A stretch of DNA of 64,000 nucleotides from Bacteroidota bacterium. Lineage in GTDB: Bacteria > Bacteroidota > Rhodothermia > Rhodothermales > Bin80. The stretch lies in the NCBI GenBank assembly GCA_028873925.1, contig JAPPNA010000070.1, positions 13,821-77,820 of the forward strand. Reading direction: 5' to 3'. The position numbers and the translations under genes are program-made. The notes beneath the pieces are model-generated. The model did not search any database and had not been told where the DNA came from. It saw only the letters and a list, made by a program, of their open reading frames with translations. This document shows, piece after piece, positions 5,185-30,053 of this stretch (position 1 is its first letter; the number at the start of each line of letters is the position of its first letter).

Positions 5185-5772
5185 TCAAGGGTCAGCGTCA
5201 CCCGAGTCCACGGCCAGCGCGGATAGGAATTCCTTCAATGGCTTGATCGCGGGAGCGTCCAAATTCCAATAATCCCTGTTCAGATAGTCCCGTTCAGCTG
5301 GCTGTGGGGGCGTTCTGACCGCGAGGCAGTACGCATAGATTTTCGCCTTTCCAAGCGGAAGCTCGTAGGGTCCGGTGAGTTCGCCCAGGCATGATTTGTA
5401 CCGCTCAAAGCAGTTCATGACCGCACGATGTTCTGAAGGGACCGATTGCTCCAGCAGCGTCTCCAGGCAGCCGGCATCGGCATCATTGGGAATAAGGAAC
5501 GAGCTGCTTACTTCAACTTCAAGTGCGTCCAGCTCCCGCTCAAGTCCGGCTCTCTGCTCCGCGGGATTCTCGTCAGCGTCCAAGATGATGGCCACATCTT
5601 TTCCCGCCTCTCTCGCCCGGCGTATTGGCAAAGCGACCAGCCTGAGTGCAGGTATACCTCCACCGATGACCCTTACTTCAATGTCTTCGGCAAGCCCGAA
5701 ATCGTCCAGCAGGCAATTCATGAACCGCTGGTCGCTGGGCCCTTCCACATACACAACGGCTTTCGCCACCAT
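5185..5772 (-). CDS. Small TOPRIM-like protein (DUF4276/DUF3226/DUF4435-like), partner of the upstream ABC ATPase
   Basis: Starts 'MVAKAVVYVEGPSDQRFM' (conserved Glu in a beta-strand followed by E-G) and later has 'VAIILDADENP' (DxD), which is the TOPRIM E...DxD arrangement. Its ATG at 5772..5770 overlaps the ATPase stop codon by one nucleotide (TGATG). The exact Pfam family was not determined. Confidence 0.6.
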   Translation of the reverse strand: MVAKAVVYVEGPSDQRFMNCLLDDFGLAEDIEVRVIGGGIPALRLVALPIRRAREAGKDVAIILDADENPAEQRAGLERELDALEVEVSSSFLIPNDADAGCLETLLEQSVPSEHRAVMNCFERYKSCLGELTGPYELPLGKAKIYAYCLAVRTPPQPAERDYLNRDYWNLDAPAIKPLKEFLSALAVDSGDADP

Positions 5773-6860
5773 CACCTGATTTCGATTCGGTGCTGCACGC
5801 AATGGTCAAATTGCTCGTGGTCATAATTGTAGGCGATCACTTTGCCGTGCCTGTTTTTGGCCAGAACGAAACACCTTACGTCCTCCCTGATAGGCAACAA
5901 CCCATCACGCTGCAATAGGCTTTGCAGCCGGATCAGTACATCGAGGCTGTGAGCGGTGGCGAAAAATTGAATGTTGCGTTTTCCTGAGATTGAGAGCAGA
6001 GCCTCAAGAAGACACTCAACGCCTTCATGGTGAAGACCGTTTTCAATCTCATCAATGAGCATAATGTGTATGGCACCTGACAGGGCAGTAGAGTACAGAT
6101 GGGCAGCCCGGACTAAGCCGTTTCCCAGTGTTTTCAGGGGCATCATCTTCTTGAGACCGATATCAACATACACGGTCTGACCCACCACAGCCATGCGATC
6201 TATATCCGGACTAATCTGACGCAGGACCTCCAACAGTTCCTGATCTAACTTGTTGATCAGGATTTCCTGCACGGCTTCCCCACTGGAATTTGCCTGCGCG
6301 CTGATGAACGCTGCTGGTATGAGGAGCGACTCCGAGTCAGCCGATGGGGCCGAAAATCGGATGCCCTCGTTAGGCATCCACTCCAACTCCCCCTTGATGC
6401 TGCTGGGGTCACCGCCGTTTAAGGCTGCCACTTGAGCATCATAGTAGATCGTCCGGGAGCCGGCGACTTTGGAACTTAAAGGTTGATACTGCCGGGGCAA
6501 TATCCGACCACGCTCTCCGTCCCCGTTGGAATGCCGCCCGATGAGCGTGGAATCGGAGCGTTTAACTGCTCCACCATTTGCGGAGTCGGCTGATATCTTA
6601 AGCCATCGCGTACCACCACCGCGACGCATTGTCGCTGATAACTCTATTGTAGACCTCGTGTTGAGGTTGCGAAACAGAGATTCCAAAGTCTCAATCGATT
6701 GCGCATCAAGTTGGCGCGCGCTCTGGACCACACTGGGCAACTGGATATTGGTAGGTCCGGTGAGCAGAAAAATGGCTTCCAGCAGCGAGGTCTTGCCCAC
6801 ATTATTGGCTCCCAGAATCAGATTGAACATACCTATCCCGTCCAGCTCAACATCTGCCAA
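5772..6860 (-). CDS. ABC/AAA_21-type (OLD/SMC-like) ATPase, copy A
   Basis: Walker A 'LGANNVGKTSLLEAI', Walker B plus D-loop 'IMLIDEIENGLHH', H-loop 'FFATAHS'. The only available start is TTG at 6860. Conserved coding sequence continues 48 nt further upstream but has no start codon and is closed by a TGA (see findings). Confidence 0.7.
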   Translation of the reverse strand: MADVELDGIGMFNLILGANNVGKTSLLEAIFLLTGPTNIQLPSVVQSARQLDAQSIETLESLFRNLNTRSTIELSATMRRGGGTRWLKISADSANGGAVKRSDSTLIGRHSNGDGERGRILPRQYQPLSSKVAGSRTIYYDAQVAALNGGDPSSIKGELEWMPNEGIRFSAPSADSESLLIPAAFISAQANSSGEAVQEILINKLDQELLEVLRQISPDIDRMAVVGQTVYVDIGLKKMMPLKTLGNGLVRAAHLYSTALSGAIHIMLIDEIENGLHHEGVECLLEALLSISGKRNIQFFATAHSLDVLIRLQSLLQRDGLLPIREDVRCFVLAKNRHGKVIAYNYDHEQFDHCVQHRIEIR

Positions 6861-6938
6861 CCCCTTGTATTGGCGTATGCGAAACGACTCAAAACTCTGG
6901 TGAATGGCTCAATTGATCTGCCTGGACAAGCGTATACG

Positions 6939-7529
6939 TCATTCCATCAGCAGAGTTCCACCGATCAAGTTGGGCGCAGATTGAATACTTCGTGTGTGAT
7001 CCACGATGCATCGCCCGCACGCAGGTATCCCGGCCTTCACTGGCTGCTGCCTGCGGGTTGGGCGTTTTCCGGCAGCAGGACTACCTTTACGTACTGGGTT
7101 GGTGAGATACTGATTGGCGGCCTGACGCAGATGGTCCGTATCAATGTTATCCAGCAGGTTGATGAGTTCGGGAATATCCTCCAGGTTCAGGGCATCATCT
7201 TCAATGTACCCCCTGAGGGCACCCGCCCACAAGCTGTTCTGCTCCATACCGGTTTCGTGATCGCGGCGGTACTGGGCCTTGGTCGTTTCCAGATACGGGG
7301 TCAGGTCCAAGTCAGTCCGAATATCCTTGACTTCATCCAATACCACCCGGGTAAGCTGCTCCACCCGGTCGGGGGCACTCCCGAAAAAGATGTTGAGGCT
7401 GTACTTGTCCTCAGGCAGTTTGGTCAGAGTGCCGTTGACTGCCGCGCCGTACACACCGGACCGCGCCTCCCGCAGTTCCTCCCGCAGGCGGATGTCTAGG
7501 ACGCGCACCAAGCCCCTGACCGCCATCAC
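6939..7529 (-). pseudogene. Duplicated 3' fragment of the M16 peptidase gene (lacks about the first 775 codons; +1 indel near the end)
   Basis: Segment 7101-7510 aligns without gaps to 8868-9277; I counted 384/410 identical bases by hand. The residues 'LVRVLDIRLREELREARSGVY...HLRQAANQYLT' match the C-terminus of the 937-aa peptidase. After 'QYLT' the fragment reads AACCCAGTACG where the full gene reads GATCAGTACG, which shifts the frame. Confidence 0.85.
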
Positions 7530-8701
7530 CTGATTTCGATTCCGTGCTGAATGCAGTGGTTGAATTTCTGGTGGTCATACCTGTATGCAATCACCTTGCC
7601 ATCCTTATTCTTGGCCAGTACGTAGCATCTCATTTCCGACCTGGCATCCGATAAACGGTCCTCTAGTAGGAGGCCCTGAAGCTGCTGGAGAACATCCAGG
7701 CTATGAGAGGTGGCAAAAATCTGCAAATTCTGCTCATAAGTTAGCGTTATGAGGGCTTCAAGAAAACTGGTCATGGCCGTGTGATGAAGACCGTTCTCAA
7801 TCTCGTCAATCAGAATTATCTGCGACTTACCGGAAAGGGCCGTAGAGTACACATTGGCGACCTGCGCCAGGCCGCTTCCAAATGTGTTGAGCGGCATCAT
7901 CTTCCCCAGTCCGATGTCGGCGTAGACTATCTGATCGATGACTGAAATCCGTTCAATCGCCGGATTGACTTGGTGTAGCACATGCGAGAGATCCCGATCC
8001 AGTTTGTTAACAACGACTTCACGGAGGGTCTCTCTCCGGTAGCTGGCCAGTGTATTTACAAATATGGCTGGAATCAGTAATGCCTCGTTTTCCATCCCCT
8101 AGGACGAATAGCGGATCCCCTCACTTGAAGAATAATCCAACTCGGCTACTGCATTGACGGGTTTCTGACCGTTTTTTCCAGCGACACGCACCTCATACTG
8201 AAGCCTTTCGGGTGCAGCTGGCATGGAAGTGAAAGCTGCGCTTGAACCGGACAAGGCAGGGCTGTAAGGCTGGCCTCCTGCGCGGGCGTGCCTTTGAGAC
8301 ATGGGTGTTGATCCAATTTGTATTCCGCCATTTGTTGAACCGGTAGATATCTTGAGGTCGCGGAATTCATCACAATCCCGCATAGAGGCCGAGATTTCAA
8401 TGGTAGAGCCTGTGTCCAGATTGCGGAAGATTGACTCAATAACTCCAAATGACACCGGGTCCAGCTGACGCATAGCCTGCACAACCCCTGGCAAACGGAT
8501 ATTGGAGAGCCCTGTGAGCAGAAAAATTGCCTCAAGTACGGATGTCTTGCCCACATCGTTGGCCCCCACGAGCAAATTGAACGAGCCCATCTCGTCCAAC
8601 GAAACATCTTCCAGCCCCTTGTACTGGCGAATTCGGAGTGACCTGAAGCTGCGGCGGATGTCGCTGACCGTTGGTGAACAGGCATCCTTACGATGAGGCA
8701 C
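7526..8701 (-). pseudogene. ABC/AAA_21-type ATPase, copy B, interrupted by an in-frame TAG (8101..8099)
   Basis: ORFs 8099..8701 (N-terminal half, 'LLVGANDVGKTSVLEAI') and 7526..8095 (C-terminal half, 'IILIDEIENGLHH', 'IFATSHS') are in the same frame and colinear with copy A. They are separated only by TAG-GGG-ATG. No TOPRIM partner follows. Confidence 0.75.
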
Positions 8702-8804
8702 TATACAGGTTCGCTCGGATTCCCGGCACTCACCGATAGCTTCATGCTATTGGATCTATGTCAAGCTCAGGAAGGCGATGCCGGGGCCGTTGCGTATCGG
8801 GCCT

Positions 8805-11618
8805 TCACCGGCTGCTGCCTGCAGGCTGGGCGTTTTCCGGCAGCAGTACCACCTTTACGTACTGATCGGTGAGATACTGGTTGGCGGCCTGACGCAGATG
8901 GTCCGTATCAATGTGATCCAGCAGGTTGATGAGTTCGGGAATGTCCTCCAGGTTCAGGGCATCATCTTCAATGTACCCCTTGAGGGCACCCGCCCAGAAG
9001 CTGTTCTGCTCCATGCCGGTTTCGTGATCGCGGCGGTACTGGGCCTTGGTCTTTTCCAGATACGGGGTCAGGTCCAAGTCAGTTTGAATGGCCTTGATTT
9101 CATCGAATACCACCTGAGTAAGCTCCTCCACCCGGTCAGGGGCACTCCCGAAAAAGATGTTGATGCTGTACTTGCCCTTAGGCAGTTTGGTCAGAGCGCC
9201 GTTGACTGACGCGCTGTACACACCGGACCGCGCCTCCCGTAGTTCCTCCCGCAGGCGAATGTCCAGGACGCGCACCAGGGCCTTGAGCAGATAGCTTCTG
9301 TCATGGGAATACTCCGCAGCTCCGTGAAAAGCCAGGACGGTCTGCGCGCGTTCCTCCAGCCCCTTGCGGACCACCCGGGTGATGGTCCCTTTCGGTGAAG
9401 GCCGGGAGCGGTCAACCCACAATTCGTTTCGTCCCGTAGCAGGCAGGGCACCCAAATACCGCTCCGCCAGACCGCGCACATGGTTAGGATCAAAATTGCC
9501 GACCAGTATAAACGTAAAATCGCCCATGTCGGCAAATCGATCGCGATAGAAGCGTAACGCCGCGTCTCGGTCAATGCCATCCAGCAGCTCAGCAGTCAGC
9601 GGGCGATGCCGCGGGTCATCCGGAAACAGGGCCTTTAAGAGCGTATCATGGAATACGGACGATGGCAGTGCCTCCCGATTCGCAAGCATGGCCCGCTGGT
9701 GATTCTGAAAATACACAATCGCGGACTCGTCCAGCCGGGGCTGGGTGGCATAGAGGTAAATCAGCTGGAACATGATTTCCAGATCCGCCGGTGCGGCCCG
9801 CGCGGAAAAGCCTTCGCTCAGCGCGCCGATCACGGGAGTCACCGACACCATATGTCCGGTCAGCTTTTTGACAAGCGCAGATCTGTCAAAGTCGCCTACG
9901 CCACTGCGCTTCACCAGTATGTCCGCCAGGGTTGCATTCAGGTAATGGTCGTCGTCGGCTAATGAGCTCCCGCCGGGACTGAAGGCCTGCAGGAGAATCT
10001 CGTCGTTCTTGTAATCGGTGGGCTTGAGCACCACCCGCGGTCCGTTGGAGAGCGTTAGCATGGTCACATCCAGCGATTCAATGCACTCAACTTCCACCAC
10101 CTTACCGCCCGGCGGCATCGGACCGATCAGCGGAAGGTCCGAGTCAGTGTCTACATAGGGCGTGGGAGCAGACACATCGATTTCGTGCAAGACAGCCAGA
10201 AGATCTTCTTCAGATGGCGGGGTCAGATCGTCTCGCTCGGGCAATGTGGCAACCACCAGGCGGCCGCTACCCTGCAAATGAAACTCCAGCGCGCGATTGG
10301 CTTCCTGCAAGGTGATTTGCGGCAGGATCGACTGTGCCACCTCGTACATATACGTAGGCCCCATGATGGGGGCCTGGGTCAGGTAGTGTTGTACCATTTC
10401 CCATGCATGGGTACGACTGGGGGTCGTATCGTGCTCATTGGCTTCCCGTTCAAATGCACGCAGCAGCTGACGCTTCTGGCGTGCAAGCTCGCCCTCGGTA
10501 AAGCCGTGGTCTAGTGCCCGTTTGGATTCCAGCATCATGGCCCTAAAGCCGGAAATCAGACTGTCTTCGGCCACCTGGCAGGCTACGGTATAGGCCTTCA
10601 GGGGGCGGATCAGTTTGCTGGTGGTGGCACGCGCCCACAGGAACGGTGCACTTGTGCCGTCACGTGCGATTTCCGCGAATCTCCGGTTGAGCATACCCCG
10701 CGCCAACAGTCCGACCAGCCGACGGCGGATGTCGGTGATCGTCCGGGCGGGGGCTGATGGCCGGTGGGTCCCCACCTCAATCAACACAGTTGGCGTTTCC
10801 GGATCGGTGATGACTTTGACATGCGTTTCTTCGCTGGTAGAGATGTGAAACGTAGGCCTGGGGACGGGTGACTCTTCGGCAGCCCAGTCGTCAAAGTACT
10901 GCCGGATGAGTGCTTCCGAGGTTTCAACGGGCAGGTCGCCCACCACCACGACCGCCATCAGATCCGGCCGGTACCAGGTTTTGTAGAAGCGGGTGAGCGC
11001 TTCCGGTGTTCCGTTGTTGATAGTCAGGGTGTCGCCGATAGGCAGGCGTTGGGCATACTGCGAATCCCGCAGGACCAGCGGAAGGGTCTTCTCCAGAATG
11101 CGGCTCTGCGCTCCCAGCCGGGCACGCCATTCTTCCAATATGACACCGCGCTCGGCCTCAATCTCGGCGCGATCAAAGAGCCCGTTGGAGGCCCATTCAC
11201 GCAGCACTGCAAATCCCGTCCGCAGCACGTCCTGGCTGTCGGTGGGTACTTCAAGCATGTATACGGTTTCATCAAAAGAAGTGTAGGCATTGACATCCGG
11301 TCCGAACGTCATCCCGGCGAGCTCAAAGAAATCAATCAGATCCTGTTTCGGGAAGCGGACCGTTCCATTAAACAGCATGTGCTCCACAAAGTGGGCCATG
11401 CCAAGTTGATCCTCATCTTCCAGGACGCTCCCGGCATTGACCACCAGGCGGAGTTCCGCCCGGTCCTGGGGCTCACTGTTCTGACGAACGAAATAGGTCA
11501 GGCCGTTCTCCAGGGTGCCGACGGTGATCATCGGATCCGTCGGCAGCGGCTGTGCCTGGAGGAGGTGTGCGGCAAAAGTCATTGCGAGTGCGCCTGGTGT
11601 TGCCCATTTCATGGCCAA
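8805..11618 (-). CDS. M16-family (pitrilysin/insulinase-like) zinc peptidase, secreted, double-unit
   Basis: 937 aa with a signal peptide and the inverted zinc motif HxxEH in 'GMAHFVEHMLFNGT'. Its length is consistent with fused active and inactive M16 halves. Confidence 0.9.
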   Translation of the reverse strand: MAMKWATPGALAMTFAAHLLQAQPLPTDPMITVGTLENGLTYFVRQNSEPQDRAELRLVVNAGSVLEDEDQLGMAHFVEHMLFNGTVRFPKQDLIDFFELAGMTFGPDVNAYTSFDETVYMLEVPTDSQDVLRTGFAVLREWASNGLFDRAEIEAERGVILEEWRARLGAQSRILEKTLPLVLRDSQYAQRLPIGDTLTINNGTPEALTRFYKTWYRPDLMAVVVVGDLPVETSEALIRQYFDDWAAEESPVPRPTFHISTSEETHVKVITDPETPTVLIEVGTHRPSAPARTITDIRRRLVGLLARGMLNRRFAEIARDGTSAPFLWARATTSKLIRPLKAYTVACQVAEDSLISGFRAMMLESKRALDHGFTEGELARQKRQLLRAFEREANEHDTTPSRTHAWEMVQHYLTQAPIMGPTYMYEVAQSILPQITLQEANRALEFHLQGSGRLVVATLPERDDLTPPSEEDLLAVLHEIDVSAPTPYVDTDSDLPLIGPMPPGGKVVEVECIESLDVTMLTLSNGPRVVLKPTDYKNDEILLQAFSPGGSSLADDDHYLNATLADILVKRSGVGDFDRSALVKKLTGHMVSVTPVIGALSEGFSARAAPADLEIMFQLIYLYATQPRLDESAIVYFQNHQRAMLANREALPSSVFHDTLLKALFPDDPRHRPLTAELLDGIDRDAALRFYRDRFADMGDFTFILVGNFDPNHVRGLAERYLGALPATGRNELWVDRSRPSPKGTITRVVRKGLEERAQTVLAFHGAAEYSHDRSYLLKALVRVLDIRLREELREARSGVYSASVNGALTKLPKGKYSINIFFGSAPDRVEELTQVVFDEIKAIQTDLDLTPYLEKTKAQYRRDHETGMEQNSFWAGALKGYIEDDALNLEDIPELINLLDHIDTDHLRQAANQYLTDQYVKVVLLPENAQPAGSSR

Positions 11619-23958: not shown

Positions 23959-26784
23959 GTGAATGGGTGCCTGATGCTCACTACCGCGCTCCCGAAATTC
24001 AAGCAACAGACACCTGCTGCTGGCATTAGGCATCTGCTGACTGAGACTTTTGGGAATGGTTGGGGGTGGTCTGTAGCGGGGTTTCTTCTGGTGATGGCCT
24101 TTCTCCTGAATGCGGCCCAGCTCTCGGCGGCATCAGGATCAACAGGCAAGATCGCGGGCCGGATTGTGGACGCGGACACGGGTGCTCCGGTCCCCGGAGC
24201 CGTAGTCAGAATTGAAGAAACAGTTCTTGGTGACGCGGCCGACAGCGAGGGCCACTATGCAATAATCAATGTAAAGCCGGGCACATACGCGATCGTGGCC
24301 TCCATAATCGGATACGCCACGGTGCGGATTGAGAATGTTGAAGTGTCGGCGGACCGGACTACGCGGGTCAACATTGAGCTCCGGGAGGCCGTAATTGAGG
24401 GCGAGGAGGTCGTGGTCATCGCCCAACGCCCGCTTATTGAGCAGGACCGTACGACTTCAGCGTCGTATGTGTCCGCTGAGGCTATCGAAAGCCTTCCGGT
24501 TCAGGAATTCCAGGACCTTCTGCAGCTGCAGCCGGGCGTAGCCTATGACGCATCCGGGCGCCTCCATTTGCGCGGAGGACGTCACGGCGAGGTCGCCTAT
24601 ATGATCGATGGCATCCCGGTCACAGACCAGTTCAGCGGCGGAAGCAAGATTGAAATTGAAAACAGCTGGGTACAGGAACTGCAGGTAATCAGCGGCACAT
24701 TCAACGCGGAGTACGGCCAGGCACAGTCAGGTGTCATCAATGTTGTCTCTAAAGAAGGGAGACCCGTGCTGGGAGGGATGGTCTCGTTCTTTGGAGGCGG
24801 TCATCTGACGGGGAGAAACGATGTCTTCCTCAATTCCACATCGCCCGGACTGTCCGAGTTTAATGGAGAAATTTCCCTGGATGGTCCGATTCCTTTTCTT
24901 CCGTCGGGGGCATTTCTGATCAGCGGTCGCCTCCTTGACGCTGACGGGTGGCTGTTCGGCGAACGGAGGGTCCGGATTGACGATACGGTTCCGATTCAGG
25001 AGTTTATTCGTCAGGCCCGCCAGACATCAACCGATCATGAGACGCTGGTTGGCATTCGGATTCCCGATTCACTGCAGACGGGGGATGGCGCAAAGGTTCC
25101 GATGAATAACCGCAGGAAACTCGCACTGCATTCCTCGCTGTCGGTGCGTCCGCTACGGGCGCTGAAGGTTAGCTATTCCCTGTTTCTCAGCGGTCAGGAG
25201 CGGAAGAATTATCAGGATAGCCGCCGATTTGCCCCGGATGGTCAGCCAACGGTCACCGATCGGGGACAGAATCATATCCTGTCTCTGACCCACACCCTGA
25301 CATCATCCACCTTTTATCGCATGGCTTTTTCGTTCCAGCGTGACCGGCGGAAGAGCCGTCTGTTTGACGATCCGCTGGATCCGCGATACCAGGGTGTAGC
25401 ATTCGGCACCCAAGGGTTTCTGTTTGGCGGGACCGGCAACGGACGCTCCGAGACTACGCAGGACCTGTATTACGCGAAAGTGGACTTTACCAGTCAGGCG
25501 GACCGGTTCAATCTCATCAAGATGGGGATGGAATATCGGCGGCACCGCATCAGGACGCGCGAACTGGTGATTATTTCGGATGGCCCGGTATATGAGTCGC
25601 CCAATCTTCGCATTCCGTCAGAAAACACGGCCGGCAATGATGCCTATACCCAGCAGCCGCGCGAGTTATCCGCCTACGTGCAGGACAAGATTGAAATTGA
25701 TGAGATTATTCTGAATGCCGGTTTGCGCTTTGACTACTGGGATCCCAGAAGCCGCATACCGACAGATCTGGAAGCCATTACCAATCCGGAGAACGGCATT
25801 CGGCTGGATACGGACTTTGAAGCGTCCGCAACGAGCTCCCAACTCAGCCCCCGGATCGGGCTGGCATTCCCGATTGCCGAAACGGGGGTGCTCCATGTGT
25901 CGTACGGCCATTTTTTCCAGATCCCGCGATTTTCGTACATCTTCACCAACTCCGAGTTTGAGGTGCAGCTGGGTGACCTGGAAACGCTGATGGGCAATGC
26001 TAATCTGAAACCGGAAAGAACGATTGCCTACGAAGTAGGCGTGCAGCAGGCTATCGCAGCTGACTGGAAGTTTGAGCTTACCGTCTATTACAAGAATATC
26101 AAGAACCTCCTCGGGCAGGAAATCATCACAACGCGTGACAAGAAGATCTATGCGCGCTACATCAACCGGGATTACGGCAATACGCGTGGGATCGTATTCT
26201 CTCTGATCCGGCAGTATCGGGGGAGCCTCGGCGCGACGGTGGATTACACCTACCAGATTGCCCGCGGTAATGCTTCGGATCCCAACGCGGTCTTCTTTGA
26301 CCACCAGGCCAGTCCGCCGCGCGAAAGTGAGAAGCAGATTCTCCCGTTGGACTGGGATCAGCGCCATACGCTGAACGGGACCCTGATCATGGGCAATCCC
26401 CGCAGTTGGACGCTGAGCCTTATTGGCCGCTTCCATACCGGCCAGCCTTATACGCCCACCGATCCCGGCAGCGCCCTGGCAGAGCAGTTTGAGAACAGCG
26501 AGTGGAAGCCGTCGCAGGTGAGTCTGGATGTAAACTTCAACCGCCGCTTTCAATGGGGAGCGGTGCGCGTGAAGTTGTTTGCGCGGGTGCATAATGCGCT
26601 GGATCGGCTGAATGCGGACCGCGTGTATTCCAGTACCGGTAATCCGGCGCATCCGTATCGAACGGTGGGTGAAGCGGAAATTCTCGCGCAGAATCCCAAT
26701 TTCACCGTGGATGAGATTAATCTGAGGCCGGACTTTTATTCCGAACCCCGGCGGATTGTCGCGGGGGTTGAACTGGGTTTTTGA
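23959..26784 (+). CDS. TonB-dependent-receptor-like outer-membrane barrel with an N-terminal carboxypeptidase-regulatory-like domain
   Basis: 'GKIAGRIVDADTGAPVPGAVVRI...GHYAIINVKPGTYAIVASIIGY' is the CarbopepD_reg-like domain. A plug region 'RLHLRGGRHGEVAYMIDGIPV' follows, then a long beta-barrel ending in the aromatic '...GVELGF'. The exact start is uncertain (23959 or a downstream Met). Confidence 0.8.
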   Translation: MNGCLMLTTALPKFKQQTPAAGIRHLLTETFGNGWGWSVAGFLLVMAFLLNAAQLSAASGSTGKIAGRIVDADTGAPVPGAVVRIEETVLGDAADSEGHYAIINVKPGTYAIVASIIGYATVRIENVEVSADRTTRVNIELREAVIEGEEVVVIAQRPLIEQDRTTSASYVSAEAIESLPVQEFQDLLQLQPGVAYDASGRLHLRGGRHGEVAYMIDGIPVTDQFSGGSKIEIENSWVQELQVISGTFNAEYGQAQSGVINVVSKEGRPVLGGMVSFFGGGHLTGRNDVFLNSTSPGLSEFNGEISLDGPIPFLPSGAFLISGRLLDADGWLFGERRVRIDDTVPIQEFIRQARQTSTDHETLVGIRIPDSLQTGDGAKVPMNNRRKLALHSSLSVRPLRALKVSYSLFLSGQERKNYQDSRRFAPDGQPTVTDRGQNHILSLTHTLTSSTFYRMAFSFQRDRRKSRLFDDPLDPRYQGVAFGTQGFLFGGTGNGRSETTQDLYYAKVDFTSQADRFNLIKMGMEYRRHRIRTRELVIISDGPVYESPNLRIPSENTAGNDAYTQQPRELSAYVQDKIEIDEIILNAGLRFDYWDPRSRIPTDLEAITNPENGIRLDTDFEASATSSQLSPRIGLAFPIAETGVLHVSYGHFFQIPRFSYIFTNSEFEVQLGDLETLMGNANLKPERTIAYEVGVQQAIAADWKFELTVYYKNIKNLLGQEIITTRDKKIYARYINRDYGNTRGIVFSLIRQYRGSLGATVDYTYQIARGNASDPNAVFFDHQASPPRESEKQILPLDWDQRHTLNGTLIMGNPRSWTLSLIGRFHTGQPYTPTDPGSALAEQFENSEWKPSQVSLDVNFNRRFQWGAVRVKLFARVHNALDRLNADRVYSSTGNPAHPYRTVGEAEILAQNPNFTVDEINLRPDFYSEPRRIVAGVELGF

Positions 26785-29700
26785 TGATGCGAATGCTTGC
26801 AGGCAATCGCCCGAATTGGCGGGCACTTTGGCCGTTGCCCTGTTCGGCGGCCGGCATGCCGGGTTGGCATCCGGCACCGATCGGGTGGGGGCTGCTGCTG
26901 CTTGCTTTTGCTTACGGTGCGCGGGCACAGACCCGTCCCGAAGCGGGCAGAGATCAGCGTCGCACGGGCATCCATGATGGCAACCTGGTCTACACCCGCT
27001 ATTCCAATTACGGCAACCTGGGATCCCGGTACGAGCCGCCCAAGATGGAGTGGCCGAAAGGCTCCGGCACCTGGTATGGATTTGAATTCATCATGATGGC
27101 TGGCGCGGAAGTGCAGGATGCCAACGGGAGACTCATTAGAGTCGTATCCGAGAATTACACCAATCCGGGATCCTTTGATATCAGCCCCGACGGTTCGCAC
27201 ACCTATGGATGGGAGCCCCTGGCGGATTATTTCAATCCGGGAGCCGCCAATGTGCACAATTATCCCGCCATGAGCCACCTCGCAGAAACATGGCCGGCTT
27301 CGTGGCCTCATGATTACCCGGGCCCGGCAGGATCCCGGGATGGGCGGTGGAACGGGGAGTTCGGCTCCTTTGTCCGGGCTGATCAGGAGAGCTATTACGT
27401 CATGGATGACCGCAACAATGACGAATTCGACTACTACCCGTTTGTCGGCACTCCGCAGGACTCGGCAGCTTTCCCGTCCGGTCTGCGGGGGCTGGGTCTG
27501 GAAGTAAGAGTTCGCGGGTACCAGTGGGTTTCTGTTCAGGCCGAGGATATACTTATTGTCCGCTACGACATCAAGAACGTCAGCCACAAGCTGCTCAGGC
27601 GCGTTGTATTCGGCATGTATGTCGATCCTGCTGTTGGGGGGCAGGGTGATTCAGTCGATGATTTTGCCGACTTTGAGCAGGTTGATGATATCGTCTATAT
27701 GTGGGACCGCGACGGAATAGACAACCGCGGTCGCCCGGGAGTAGGGTATTTCGGCTTCGCTTTCCTGGAGAGTCCCGGAGATCCGCTCAACGAAATAGAT
27801 AATGATCAGGATGGCATTGTTGATGAGCGGCAGGACAACCCTCGCGGCATCATGGTCGCCGGGCAGGATGAGATTGAGGCCTATGTGGATTCCCGATATG
27901 ATCGGGCCCAATTTGAAAGTTTTTACGGATCCTTATCCCTGCGCCCGGCCTTTGAGAGCGGAGTGTGGTGGACAGGAGATGAGGACATGGACTGGGTGCC
28001 CTATCTGGATGCCAACGGAAACGGACAGATGGATGCCGGGGAATTGATTCTTGACGACACCGGTTCCGACGGACTGGCCCCGCAGGCGGAAGGCTACACA
28101 GGGCCTGACACCGATGGCACCGAAGGTAACGGGATTCCAGATGAAGGTGAACCGAACTTCGGCAAGACCGACAACGATGAATCGGATCAGATAGGCCTGA
28201 CCAGCTTTGTGCTGCGTCCGGCCGGGAATGTCAGTGATGATGCCCGAACCTGGCGCGAAATGGAGCCGGGGAGTTTCGGCGGGTCCATGCCCAGCAACCT
28301 GGCGTTCATTTACGGATCAGGTTACTTCGAGCTGCCGAGGGAAGAGACGCGCAAATTTGCCATTGCTAACCTGTTCGGGCGTGACTTTGATGATATTCTG
28401 CGCAACAAACGCACGATGCAGCGGATTTACGATGCCGATTATTCCTTTGCCCGGCCGCCCAACAAGCCGACGCTGACGGCTGTTCCGGGGGATCGAAAGG
28501 TTACCCTGATGTGGGACAATCGGGCCGAGTTCTCCCGTGACCCGATCTACGGGCGCGACTTTGAGGGATATCTGATCTACCGTTCTACGGATCCGTCTTT
28601 CAATTCAATCAAGACGATCAGCGATGCCTTCGGCAACCCTACGCTCTGGAAGCCGATCATGCAGTTTGACATCAAGAACGGGCTATCGGGTCCGCATCCG
28701 ATTCAGATTGGCGAGTCGGGCGCGGTGTACAACACAGGAAGCGATACCGGGCTGCGGTACTTTTTTGTCGACGAGGGGCTGGACAACGGTCGGACCTATT
28801 ATTACGCCGTTGCCTCCTATGACCGGGGTTATGACACGGATTTTTTTGCTCGCGGCCTGAGCAACAAGGACAAACTCACACCCATTGCACCGAGTGAGAG
28901 CTCAAAGATCATTCAGACCGACCTAGTCGGCAATGTTACCTTTGTTGACCGGAATACGGCCGTCGCGGTACCCAATGCGCCGGGTATCGGCTTCATTGCG
29001 GGGGATATAGAGGGGGACTTGGAACATGTCGGACCGGGCACCGGCCGCGTGGATATTGAGGTGGTCGTTCCCGACAGCATCCGCAGCAACGCGCAGTATT
29101 CAGTCACATTTAGCGACACCACGCGCTCTTTGCTTACGAAGGGGATTCGGATTGAAGAAGAACTGTCGGGCCGTGTCGTATATGAGGCTGCCCGGTTTGA
29201 CAGCCTGGATCTGGTGACGCGGATTCGGGAGGGGATGCGTTTCAAGATTTATACCCCTGAGGCCGCCGCACCTGTGGTGTTCGGCTGGACTCAGGGTACC
29301 AGCAATGTTCGGGCCAGCATCGATCTCGTGCCGTCTGGCCGCAGTGTAGCGCTGCCGGAGGATATTGAGATTCGGATAGGTCAGCCCGGCATGGACACCA
29401 GCTTTGTGCAATTCGCTTTTGAGCAGGGAATCCCGGTCAATTTCAGTGTATCCAGTGTAACCACGGGTGAGCCGCTGGAATTTCTGTTTGAGGAGACCGC
29501 GCAGCCGGATGGCCTGTTGAGCGCTGGGGATAGGGTAACCGTTGTGTTTGATATCAGCGGATTGCGCTTCAACTTGGGATGGCGCTTTACTTTCACCGGG
29601 CCGCCTGGCGAGCAGGCGACTCTGCCGGAACAGGGAGATGTTTATGCCCTGCAGGTGTCCAAGCCCTTTTCCTCGCTCGACCGCATCGTCTTCAGGACGA

Positions 29701-30053
29701 GAGCATCATCGTTCGATGAGGCGCTGGCCCAAAACAGTCTGGACAACATTTATGTTGTGCCGGACCCCTATGTGGCGAGTGCCTCCTGGGAGCGTCCCCT
29801 GTTCAACCAGACAGGCAGGGGCGAGCGCCGGATTGACTTTGTCAACCTTCCGCCGAAGTGCACCATCAGGATTTTCACGACATCAGGCAAACTCGTCCAG
29901 GTACTAGAGCACGACAGTGCTCCGGAAGACGGCACCGAGAGTTGGGATCTGGTATCCAAGGATGGTCTCACGGTGGCCTTTGGGGTCTATATTTTTCATG
30001 TGGAGGCTCCCGGTATCGGCAGCAGGATGGGCAAGTTTACCCTCATTAAGTGA
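26784..30053 (+). CDS. Large secreted multidomain protein (Asp-rich Ca-binding-type repeats, FN3-like module, C-terminal T9SS/FlgD-Ig-like sorting domain)
   Basis: Its ATG overlaps the upstream stop (TGATG). Motifs: signal peptide 'LLLLAFAYGARAQ'; 'DNDQDGIVDE', 'DANGNGQMDAGE', 'DTDGTEGNGIPDEGEPNFGKTDNDESD'; FN3-like 'PTLTAVPGDRKVTLMWDN...GYLIYRS'; C-terminus 'CTIRIFTTSGKLVQVLEH...GVYIFHVEAPG...GKFTLIK'. Confidence 0.75.
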   Translation: MMRMLAGNRPNWRALWPLPCSAAGMPGWHPAPIGWGLLLLAFAYGARAQTRPEAGRDQRRTGIHDGNLVYTRYSNYGNLGSRYEPPKMEWPKGSGTWYGFEFIMMAGAEVQDANGRLIRVVSENYTNPGSFDISPDGSHTYGWEPLADYFNPGAANVHNYPAMSHLAETWPASWPHDYPGPAGSRDGRWNGEFGSFVRADQESYYVMDDRNNDEFDYYPFVGTPQDSAAFPSGLRGLGLEVRVRGYQWVSVQAEDILIVRYDIKNVSHKLLRRVVFGMYVDPAVGGQGDSVDDFADFEQVDDIVYMWDRDGIDNRGRPGVGYFGFAFLESPGDPLNEIDNDQDGIVDERQDNPRGIMVAGQDEIEAYVDSRYDRAQFESFYGSLSLRPAFESGVWWTGDEDMDWVPYLDANGNGQMDAGELILDDTGSDGLAPQAEGYTGPDTDGTEGNGIPDEGEPNFGKTDNDESDQIGLTSFVLRPAGNVSDDARTWREMEPGSFGGSMPSNLAFIYGSGYFELPREETRKFAIANLFGRDFDDILRNKRTMQRIYDADYSFARPPNKPTLTAVPGDRKVTLMWDNRAEFSRDPIYGRDFEGYLIYRSTDPSFNSIKTISDAFGNPTLWKPIMQFDIKNGLSGPHPIQIGESGAVYNTGSDTGLRYFFVDEGLDNGRTYYYAVASYDRGYDTDFFARGLSNKDKLTPIAPSESSKIIQTDLVGNVTFVDRNTAVAVPNAPGIGFIAGDIEGDLEHVGPGTGRVDIEVVVPDSIRSNAQYSVTFSDTTRSLLTKGIRIEEELSGRVVYEAARFDSLDLVTRIREGMRFKIYTPEAAAPVVFGWTQGTSNVRASIDLVPSGRSVALPEDIEIRIGQPGMDTSFVQFAFEQGIPVNFSVSSVTTGEPLEFLFEETAQPDGLLSAGDRVTVVFDISGLRFNLGWRFTFTGPPGEQATLPEQGDVYALQVSKPFSSLDRIVFRTRASSFDEALAQNSLDNIYVVPDPYVASASWERPLFNQTGRGERRIDFVNLPPKCTIRIFTTSGKLVQVLEHDSAPEDGTESWDLVSKDGLTVAFGVYIFHVEAPGIGSRMGKFTLIK

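Follow-up and report, generated by a model that had tools for sequence, protein, structure and literature searches.

A coupled ABC ATPase and DUF3226 gene pair in a Rhodothermales genome: a candidate anti-phage module of the ATPase and OLD-type Toprim class

The gene pair and its two products

The stretch of DNA analysed here (64,000 nucleotides, referred to as the window) comes from a Bacteroidota bacterium of the order Rhodothermales (contig JAPPNA010000070.1, positions 13,821 to 77,820). On its minus strand, at 6905..5185, it carries a two-gene, translationally coupled operon encoding an ABC ATPase and a small OLD-type Toprim protein of the DUF3226 family, which is a candidate nuclease. The first gene (6905..5772, minus strand), hereafter ATPase copy 1, is apparently intact and gives 377 amino acids when read from an ATT start; the second (5772..5185, minus strand) gives 195 amino acids and is considered a minimal OLD-type Toprim nuclease candidate on the basis of its Pfam family and its predicted structure. 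The stop codon of the ATPase gene (TGA, 5774..5772) shares one base with the ATG of the small gene, and the resulting TGATG overlap (5770..5774, minus strand), i.e., the translational coupling, can be read directly from the sequence as GGTGATGG. An original prediction, made from the letters of the window, had proposed exactly such a pair, and the elements on which it relied are all there. The minus-strand open reading frame (ORF) 6860..5772 contains the Walker A (GANNVGKTS), the Walker B and D-loop (LIDEIENGLHH; IMLIDEIENGLHH), and the H-loop (FATAHS), together with a signature-like LGNG; the coupled ORF, announced as about 195 residues, has that length; and its E...DxD arrangement corresponds to E10 and D65/D67, the protein starting with MVAKAVVYVEG (VYVEG being residues 7-11 and ILDAD residues 63-67). 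The prediction left out the strand, and it overlooked the ATT start as well as two neighbouring features described below, a pseudogene copy of the ATPase and a duplicated fragment of an M16 peptidase gene.

The start of the ATPase gene deserves particular attention. The first ATG, GTG, or TTG of the frame is the TTG at 6860, which sits within the conserved N-terminal strand, so that a protein begun there would lack the first strand of its fold. Before this codon, the frame reads TGA-GCC-ATT-CAC-CAG-AGT-TTT-GAG-TCG-TTT-CGC-ATA-CGC-CAA-TAC-AAG-GGG-TTG, that is, A-I-H-Q-S-F-E-S-F-R-I-R-Q-Y-K-G-L, the ATT (6905..6903) being located two codons past an in-frame TGA (6911..6909). The closest homologues (L004, L006, and L008, with L005 further off) share this N-terminal peptide, A/T-I-x-R-S/R-F/L-x-S-x-R/E-I-R-Q/R/H-F-K-G/A-L. 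As in the window, L004, L006, and L008 have an in-frame stop a few codons upstream and no ATG, GTG, or TTG. An ATT or ATC is kept at the start position in the five loci of the clade (the window, L004 at 9956, L006 at 5947, L008 at 745, and L005 at ~10220) and aligns with the methionine of more distant ATPase homologues. AlphaFold models the corresponding residues as the first hairpin, with a predicted local distance difference test score (pLDDT) of 89-93. Moreover, where the loci differ here, the changes are for the most part synonymous (AGT/AGC, TTT/TTC, TCG/TCC, ATA/ATT), and we therefore consider that this stretch is translated. Taken together, these comparisons make the ATT at 6905..6903 the likely start of the 377-amino-acid ATPase, with initiation at AUU or AUC. 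An N-terminally truncated ATPase copy 1 was ruled out by the conservation, with synonymous changes, of the upstream in-frame protein in the five loci.

By its families, ATPase copy 1 is an ABC ATPase of the AAA_15/AAA_21 type with all the motifs of this superfamily (Pfam AAA_21, 1.3e-15; AAA_15, 3e-11). Its best PADLOC model is AbiLi (PDLC02336, 1.5e-48, model positions 15-340 of 340), followed by five PDC-M38A models (best 1.1e-32) and then by AriA, GajA, PtuA, mad3, and Old; the AriA models cover only the segments 211-309 and 12-58, at 8e-17 and 2e-11. In a profile search of the PDB built on 60 ATPase homologues, the Septu protein PtuA came closest (1.3e-11), before retron PtuA, Thermus OLD, AriA, and GajA, and the matches to RecF and Rad50 were confined to the surroundings of the P-loop. 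The AlphaFold2 model (pLDDT 85.6, residues 110-147 disordered) retrieved with Foldseek the retron Eco8 OLD protein, PtuA, Rad50, and SMC heads, at E-values of 1e-13 to 1e-11. NCBIfam gave fragmentary matches only, among them RecF (TIGR00611, 5e-7) over ~30 residues around the Walker A, with 29 bits against a cutoff of 172, and SMC_N matched the N-terminus weakly (3e-5). Since the best full-length, profile, and structure matches are AbiLi, PtuA, OLD, AriA, and GajA, the ATPase groups, on sequence and model comparison, with the defence ABC ATPases and not with transporters or RecF; a grouping with housekeeping ABC/RecF-like proteins was an outcome that the original prediction had named as speaking against it.

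The partner protein matches Pfam DUF3226 (PF11536) at 6.2e-17, with 62.5 bits against a gathering cutoff of 27 and with residues 5-186 aligned on model positions 2-206 of 208, and all 66 homologues that we collected match the same family. Hence, the hidden Markov model (HMM) search that the original prediction had called for did return a family, and its suspicion of a distinct subtype was borne out, this family being neither DUF4435 nor RloB. The links to characterised Toprim proteins are more distant. In Pfam, the window protein matches OLD-like_TOPRIM below threshold (E 0.039), its residues 3-67 covering all 67 positions of the model; in PADLOC, it matches PDC-M38B (5.3e-7), AbiLii (0.012), and AriB (0.061). 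Weak matches of the same kind recur among the 66 homologues, i.e., PDC-M38B in 54, AbiLii in 53 (best 7e-10), mad4 in 15, and AriB in 13 for PADLOC, and OLD-like_TOPRIM in 18, DUF4435 in 10 (best 0.003), and OLD-like_TOPRIM_1 in 9 for Pfam. RloB (PF13707) matched neither the window protein nor any homologue at E<=0.1, no sequence relative was found in the PDB with the single sequence or with the 66-sequence profile, and no NCBIfam model matched the small protein.

The structure predicted from the 66-homologue alignment (AlphaFold2, pLDDT 93.3, predicted template modelling score 0.87) shows four parallel strands alternating with helices, followed by a helical C-terminal half. In the PDB, Foldseek placed at ranks 1-3 the C-terminal Toprim and helical region of Xanthomonas campestris OLD (6njv, 6njw, and 6njx), with probabilities of 0.95-0.99, ~210 aligned columns, template modelling (TM) scores of 0.39-0.49, and E-values of 6e-3 to 1e-2; a Toprim fold, which the original prediction had read from the motifs, is thus the top-ranked structural match. 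TopoVI-A, a PARIS chain (8ux9_A), and Thermus OLD came at lower ranks.

In the OLD protein of Burkholderia, the two-metal site is made of E400 and E404 after strand 1, of D455-x-D457 behind strand 3, of T506 and E508 where the helical domain starts, and of K562 from a later helix, and RNase M5 has an Asp at the position equivalent to E404 (PMC6755086). In the window protein, E10 and D14 (conserved in 100% and 98% of the 66 homologues) follow the predicted strand 5-9; D65 and the aspartate at position 67 follow strand 59-65; E104 and T105 (100% and 92%) open helix 103-109; and K142 (100%) lies within helix 141-151. D65 and A66 are invariant (100% each), and position 67 is N in 59% and D in 41% of the homologues, the window protein having D. 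We infer that E10/D14, D65/D67, E104/T105, and K142 form a putative catalytic set that matches the Burkholderia one in linear order and in secondary structure. Overall, the small protein appears to be a Toprim-fold partner with acidic metal-binding residues, a view for which the sequence and model support is consistent across methods but individually weak.

A separate feature of the family is found in the helical half, where H115, C121, C128, and C149 are 98-100% conserved in the 66 homologues, with C102 in addition (window ~5326-5469). This near-invariant His with three or four Cys could constitute a metal (Zn) site.

A stacked second allele and the surroundings of the pair

Read on the minus strand from 11618, the locus consists of a full-length M16 peptidase gene, a second ATPase copy, a copy of the M16 3' end, ATPase copy 1, the DUF3226 gene, and an acuI-like gene. 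The full-length M16 gene (11618..8805, minus strand; Peptidase_M16, 1.3e-28; Peptidase_M16_C, 3.9e-36) is a housekeeping flank, and the duplicated fragment derives from, or is homologous to, its final 490 bp. ATPase copy 2 (8701..7526, minus strand), a pseudogene interrupted by a TAG in its frame (8101..8099), has no DUF3226 partner. The M16 fragment (7519..7032, minus strand), identified with blastn, synonymous divergence (dS), and junction alignment, is a duplicated 3' gene fragment and a pseudogene frameshifted near its end. Between this fragment and the live pair, the region 6906..7031 (minus strand) is specific to the copy 1 cassette, differs from the region upstream of copy 2, and presumably holds the promoter. 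The original prediction had placed the pair in lower-GC DNA between acuI and an M16 peptidase gene. The first part holds clearly for the ATPase gene (G+C 0.50-0.54, against 0.58-0.61 in the flanks) and slightly for the small gene, where the dip is only to 0.54-0.57; the second part needs a correction, since the M16 fragment and ATPase copy 2 intervene before the full M16 gene.

The two units at this site have very different ages. The M16 repeat (7032..7519 versus 8800..9286, ~490 bp) is 92.4% identical at the DNA level (blastn), with a dS of 0.13. The two ATPases, on the contrary, share 52% amino acid identity, with a saturated dS (2.8) and a dN/dS (dN, nonsynonymous divergence) of ~0.13, copy 2 keeping every ATPase motif. 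This difference indicates that the ATPases are old alleles that have been under purifying selection and that were joined by a recent event. The junctions are precise. Similarity between the two units stops ~20 nt past the M16 stop codon in the junction alignment, so that in each of them the divergent cassette follows M16 immediately. The M16 fragment joins the last codons of ATPase copy 2 directly, and this left junction (…ATCGAAATCAGGTGATGG|CGGTCAGGGGCTTGGTGCG…) falls within ~3 nt of the ATG that would start the partner gene of copy 2; that partner was therefore removed exactly. By sequence comparison, a recent event stacked the live cassette with a dead, divergent allele and copied 490 bp of the M16 flank; the M16 duplicate looks like flanking DNA carried along when the second cassette allele was stacked at the site.

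Two other origins were considered and rejected. A simple recent tandem duplication of the M16 3' end and the ATPase is ruled out by the M16 dS of 0.13 versus the ATPase dS of 2.8 and identity of 52%. An assembly chimera is ruled out by Logan contigs from three independent sponge-metagenome studies, which span the junction, 7287-8910 being present in one piece. In run X1, the depth over the junction of copy 2 with the M16 fragment was 17.7, versus 19.6 on neighbouring contigs.

The metagenomic runs also show how the alleles evolve in sister strains. Runs X3 and X9 have CAG instead of the TAG in copy 2 (8101), but TAA at codon 166 (8164); copy 2 was thus knocked out independently in two lineages. 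Strains differ at 18 or more sites in copy 2 (11 nonsynonymous), versus 3 sites in ATPase 1 (2 synonymous; X3 strain). The DUF3226 gene of run X3 has a Y146* nonsense mutation (5335) and a 70-bp deletion (5367-5436), while its ATPase 1 stays open. In the same run, the contigs break at 7736-7739, within copy 2, and leave loose ends with terminal inverted repeats CGGAAGTTTGCCA, which suggests the insertion of an element resembling an insertion sequence (IS).

The other genes of the neighbourhood are TMEM164, AbgT, TonB_C, the acuI-like dehydrogenase, the M16 peptidase, DUF6807, a GMC oxidoreductase, a histidine kinase, and CysRS, and no integrase or tRNA was found near the pair in the window neighbourhood. 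A scan for sigma-70 promoters and intrinsic terminators gave one internal promoter-like site, nothing of relevance in 6906..7031, and no terminators, with an E. coli consensus that is not applicable to Bacteroidota. A search for RNA runs returned exclusively runs of unknown type. Elsewhere in the window, downstream of a TonB-dependent receptor gene, lies a 1090-amino-acid ORF (26781-30053, plus strand) without a Pfam match at E<=1e-5.

Relatives, distribution, and decay

A word-based search returned 7 close relatives of the small protein and a profile search 157, while a HMMER scan of 1.84 billion representatives gave 1994 family members at E<=1e-3, almost all stand-alone proteins of 180-200 amino acids. 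The closest relative (96% identity) is found in a Bacteroidota metagenome-assembled genome (MAG) with the synteny ATPase-DUF3226-acuI-TonB-AbgT, on a contig that ends inside the ATPase gene. We compared 35 loci from species-representative genomes, all of them MAGs. They belong to Latescibacterota, Longimicrobiales/Gemmatimonadota, Rhodothermales, Bryobacterales, Vicinamibacteria, Thermoanaerobaculia, Spirochaetia, and Alpha- and Gammaproteobacteria. In ~27 of these 35 loci, the ATPase gene lies directly upstream of the DUF3226 gene, overlapping or abutting it; with the TGATG of the window, the two genes are therefore adjacent, co-oriented, and co-inherited, as expected of a two-gene system of the ABC ATPase and Toprim superfamily. 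According to run labels and sample names, the close homologues and runs X1-X7 appear to come from sponge and coral microbiomes. This almost exclusive occurrence in MAGs of very different phyla that share an apparent habitat suggests a habitat-bound horizontal transfer among unrelated phyla.

The pair is often damaged. Eight of the 35 loci are affected: L025, L037, and L030 carry IS insertions, L041 is split, L043 is truncated, and L038, L039, and L042 are fragments. The insertions that interrupt the pair in four genomes measure 1.8-3.1 kb and contain an IS110 transposase (L025, 6220-8007), an IS3-type rve transposase (L037, 5393-7992), an IS66 transposase with a DruA-like ORF (L030, 4199-7300), or no Pfam match (L041, 5492-7992). 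The damage falls unevenly on the two genes: an intact ATPase accompanies a damaged or absent DUF3226 gene in L004, L006, L025, L037, L041, L043, and strain X3, and the reverse is seen in L030 only, a tally of small numbers gathered by two search routes with opposite ascertainment biases. The more frequent loss of the effector would fit an effector that is toxic and that the ATPase keeps in check.

Two loci also differ in their cargo. L004 (10001-13100) and L006 (6001-8462) are syntenic (ExbB/ExbD/TPR ... shikimate kinase) and both keep the ATPase, but the cargo after it differs, i.e., a decayed DUF3226 remnant with an AAA_15-DUF3696 ATPase in L004 and a Schlafen/AlbA_2-HATPase_c_4 gene in L006. 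This site appears variable.

A distant form of the pair is plasmid-borne. An ATPase search of plasmids gave 146 matches at 23-25% identity, 134 of them in Klebsiella and mostly on ColE1-type plasmids of 4.2-4.7 kb. Around 144 small Klebsiella pneumoniae and E. coli plasmids in PLSDB carry an overlapping ATPase and DUF3226 pair as almost their sole cargo, for example, L045 (NZ_LR890187.1, 2726-4473), where the genes bear no other annotation than 'ATP-binding protein' and 'DUF3226 domain-containing protein'. The plasmid small protein aligns with the window family at a probability of 97.9% (hhalign) and keeps FVEG.DD, ILDAD, G.IE, and KKAK. In PADLOC, this pair matches AbiLi (9.5e-59), PDC-M38A (2.4e-44), and, over its full length, PDC-M38B (9.3e-12). 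The ATPase and DUF3226 combination is thus a general architecture, which appears in PADLOC as the candidate PDC-M38.

Place among known systems and probable function

The original prediction had assigned the split ABC ATPase and Toprim-like pair to the class of OLD, PARIS, and AbiL, and the PADLOC, PDB-profile, and Foldseek matches support this assignment at the level of the class. Within it, the nearest system is PDC-M38, a PADLOC candidate with the same gene order. The HMMs of both its components match the adjacent window genes, judged on their E-values (PDC-M38A for the ATPase and PDC-M38B for the small protein, as given above). Nevertheless, the match of the small protein does not extend beyond the N-terminal half of the PDC-M38B model (4-88), AbiLi gives the ATPase a better score, and the window clade is ~25% identical to the plasmid pair of PDC-M38 type. 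AbiL of Lactococcus lactis also combines an ABC ATPase with a small OLD-like Toprim protein encoded after it, and the window ATPase is of the AbiLi type over nearly the whole model. Lactococcal AbiLii is reported to have PDB 6NJV as its best structural match (PMC13064643), a top match that it has in common with the window small protein. On the contrary, AbiLii belongs to Pfam RloB while the window partner belongs to DUF3226 and matches the AbiLii model at 0.012 only, and AbiL resides on a lactococcal plasmid whereas the window pair is carried on the chromosomes of uncultured marine symbionts.

Phage satellites and prophages are the typical location of PARIS; the window clade, by contrast, was absent from the viral collections searched. 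This system (AriA and AriB, OLD family class 4) shares with the window pair the split into an ABC ATPase on one side and a Toprim effector on the other, and the same logic is proposed for both, with an ATPase that holds and then releases a toxic nuclease. However, AriB is a DUF4435 (PF14491) protein of ~300 amino acids, whereas the window effector is a 195-residue DUF3226 protein with no DUF4435 match of its own, and the ATPase, with 377 residues against 464 for AriA (~90 fewer), matches AriA over the core motifs only and not over its full length. The OLD proteins of classes 1 and 2 (P2 Old, Gabija GajA) have the same class of ATPase, the same Toprim and helical nuclease, and the same order of catalytic residues (E, E/D, DxD, T/E, K). 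In these proteins, the ATPase and the Toprim domain are fused, while the window has two genes, and class 2 proteins are adjacent to a UvrD-like helicase, while no helicase adjoins the window pair, which is flanked by an acuI-like gene on one side and by the M16 fragment on the other. Judged by sequence, the pair is thus neither PARIS, nor AbiL in the strict sense, nor a fused OLD or Gabija system; it fits PDC-M38, and AbiLi at the level of the ATPase. The small partner, which the original prediction had judged possibly distinct, would make the pair an uncharacterised addition to the already known ABC ATPase and Toprim class.

What is established for this class gives a model of action. In PARIS, AriB is kept bound by AriA hexamers, which let it go when they sense a phage protein, and AriB then cleaves tRNA (PMC11464382). 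AbiL and MADS3-4 follow the same plan of an ATPase with a Toprim protein (PMC11464382, PMC13064643). In the NetFlax work, AAA ATPase antitoxins neutralised TOPRIM_OLD toxins in toxicity assays (PMC10440598), and OLD Toprim domains act by two-metal catalysis (PMC6755086). By analogy with AriA-AriB, AbiL, and the NetFlax pairs, an oligomer of the window ATPase would bind the small nuclease, keep it inactive, and act as a sensor of infection. A trigger from the phage, together with the binding or hydrolysis of ATP, would then release or activate the nuclease. Once free, the DUF3226 protein might cut tRNA, like PARIS and P2 Old, or DNA, like OLD proteins of classes 1 and 2 and Gabija, and this cutting would keep the infected cell from growing further. 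Downstream of the M16 gene, the site, which holds a divergent and now dead ATPase allele, may function as a swap site. We consider it probable, by analogy with these systems, that the pair is an anti-phage module of the class that includes AbiL, PARIS, MADS3-4, and PDC-M38.

The behaviour of the pair is that of an accessory or defence-like element, i.e., patchy across phyla, lower in G+C than its flanks, and hit by IS insertions and deletions in 8 of the 35 loci. Some loci have defence-type neighbours, such as L003 (GmrSD_N, an AAA_15/23 ATPase, a PLD-SNF2 helicase, and Fic), L006 (Schlafen/AlbA_2), L004 (AAA_15-DUF3696 ATPase), and L030 (DruA-like). We also annotated 135 proteins that flank the pair in 25 other loci. 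Metabolic families (MR_MLE, ABC_tran, AP_endonuc_2, FBPase) lead their Pfam matches, and only ~10 of the proteins match defence models strongly (mad3 three times, REase_III, MTase_II, AbiEi, AbiEii, RT, PtuB, HEC-01B, and PDC-M45A), a raw fraction to be read without a background rate. The support for a location in defence islands is thus weak.

Several observations weigh against an anti-phage role or against the class assignment on which it is based. The flanks are housekeeping or metabolic in the window and in most related loci. The small protein of the window clade was found in none of the IMG/VR viral contigs, GenBank phages, and PLSDB plasmids, and the window-clade ATPase in none of the GenBank phages. 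The OLD structural match, top-ranked as it is, stays weak, with no Foldseek match at E<1e-3, and so do the Pfam match to OLD-like_TOPRIM and the PADLOC match to AbiLii. At the second Asp of the DxD motif, which the window protein keeps, 59% of the family have Asn. The ATPase has no canonical start codon upstream of the conserved N-terminal strand, and the locus is decaying in sister strains. In the library searched, neither DUF3226 nor PDC-M38 is mentioned by any paper, and the Toprim partners annotated by Burman et al. are TOPRIM-Old, DUF4435, RloB, and DUF4276, not DUF3226. Finally, HEC-01, a related ATPase and TOPRIM candidate, showed no defence when the PADLOC group assayed it.

A rival explanation is a toxin-antitoxin-style addiction or stabilisation module, with the nuclease as the toxin, the ATPase as the antitoxin, no anti-phage role, and a loss costly for the cell. 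The NetFlax pairs, in which AAA-ATPase antitoxins were validated against TOPRIM_OLD toxins (PMC10440598), offer a precedent. The distant pair, which makes up nearly all the cargo of ~140 small ColE1-type Klebsiella plasmids, occupies a place typical of stabilisation modules, most chromosomal copies stand alone among metabolic genes outside defence islands, and decay is asymmetric, the effector usually being lost first. Such a module should, however, resist loss, and yet both genes are often broken; moreover, all the characterised relatives of the ATPase (AbiLi, AriA, PtuA, GajA, and OLD) act in phage defence. The two roles are not exclusive, since PARIS behaves as both, and a purely addictive function seems to us rather improbable.

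Somewhat less probable still is that the pair is a decaying, non-functional remnant whose ORFs merely survive in this genome. The missing ATG, GTG, or TTG upstream of the first strand would fit such a remnant, as would the pseudogene state of the adjoining copy 2, the Y146* mutation and 70-bp deletion in the X3 DUF3226 gene, and the promoter and terminator scan, which gave nothing useful; this last argument loses its force with the E. coli consensus, which does not apply to Bacteroidota. Both ORFs, however, are full length with every conserved motif present, and the ATT or ATC codon is conserved in five independent clade loci with synonymous changes behind it, which points to translation. ATPase 1 also differs from the X3 strain by only 3 changes, 2 of them synonymous, compared with at least 18, 11 of them nonsynonymous, in the pseudogene copy.

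A housekeeping role in DNA repair or recombination, like that of RecF with the Toprim protein RecR or of Rad50-type complexes, is very improbable: the weak N-terminal matches to RecF, Rad50, and SMC_N, the Rad50 and SMC heads among the Foldseek matches, and the housekeeping neighbours would fit it, but the RecF match is limited to the Walker A and far below its cutoff, the best full-length matches are defence ATPases, and a sporadic distribution across phyla, frequent pseudogenisation or IS hits, and divergent alleles at one site, unlike an essential repair gene, argue strongly against it.

Beyond the anti-phage module itself, a wider interpretation would bring the peculiarities of these loci together. 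The ATPase and DUF3226 pairs might form a class of their own, made of minimal, split OLD-like modules with an immune or toxin function, spread horizontally, started at AUU or AUC, and with alleles swapped at fixed sites; we propose it tentatively and regard it as doubtful when taken as a whole. The effector of this class would be a protein of ~190 amino acids, about two-thirds of AriB, with a DAD or DAN metal motif and a conserved His/Cys cluster. The modules would have spread among unrelated symbionts of marine invertebrates and, as a distant form, via the small ColE1 plasmids found in Klebsiella. In the clade of the window, the ATPase would be deliberately translated from AUU or AUC. Alleles would be swapped via the flanking housekeeping gene and the losers inactivated, a scenario that the independent nonsense mutations of copy 2 would fit.

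If the pair is active, it would add a compact branch with a DUF3226 effector to the ABC ATPase and Toprim immune systems; otherwise, it would be an ordinary accessory module of a well-known class. An active 195-residue nuclease with its 377-residue ATPase would be among the smallest versions of these systems, and attractive for structural work on how a nuclease is restrained and released. The plasmid relatives in Klebsiella and E. coli make the architecture directly testable in laboratory strains. Lastly, the live and dead alleles stacked with a copied piece of M16 would represent a clean example of cassette exchange at a fixed site in uncultured sponge symbionts.

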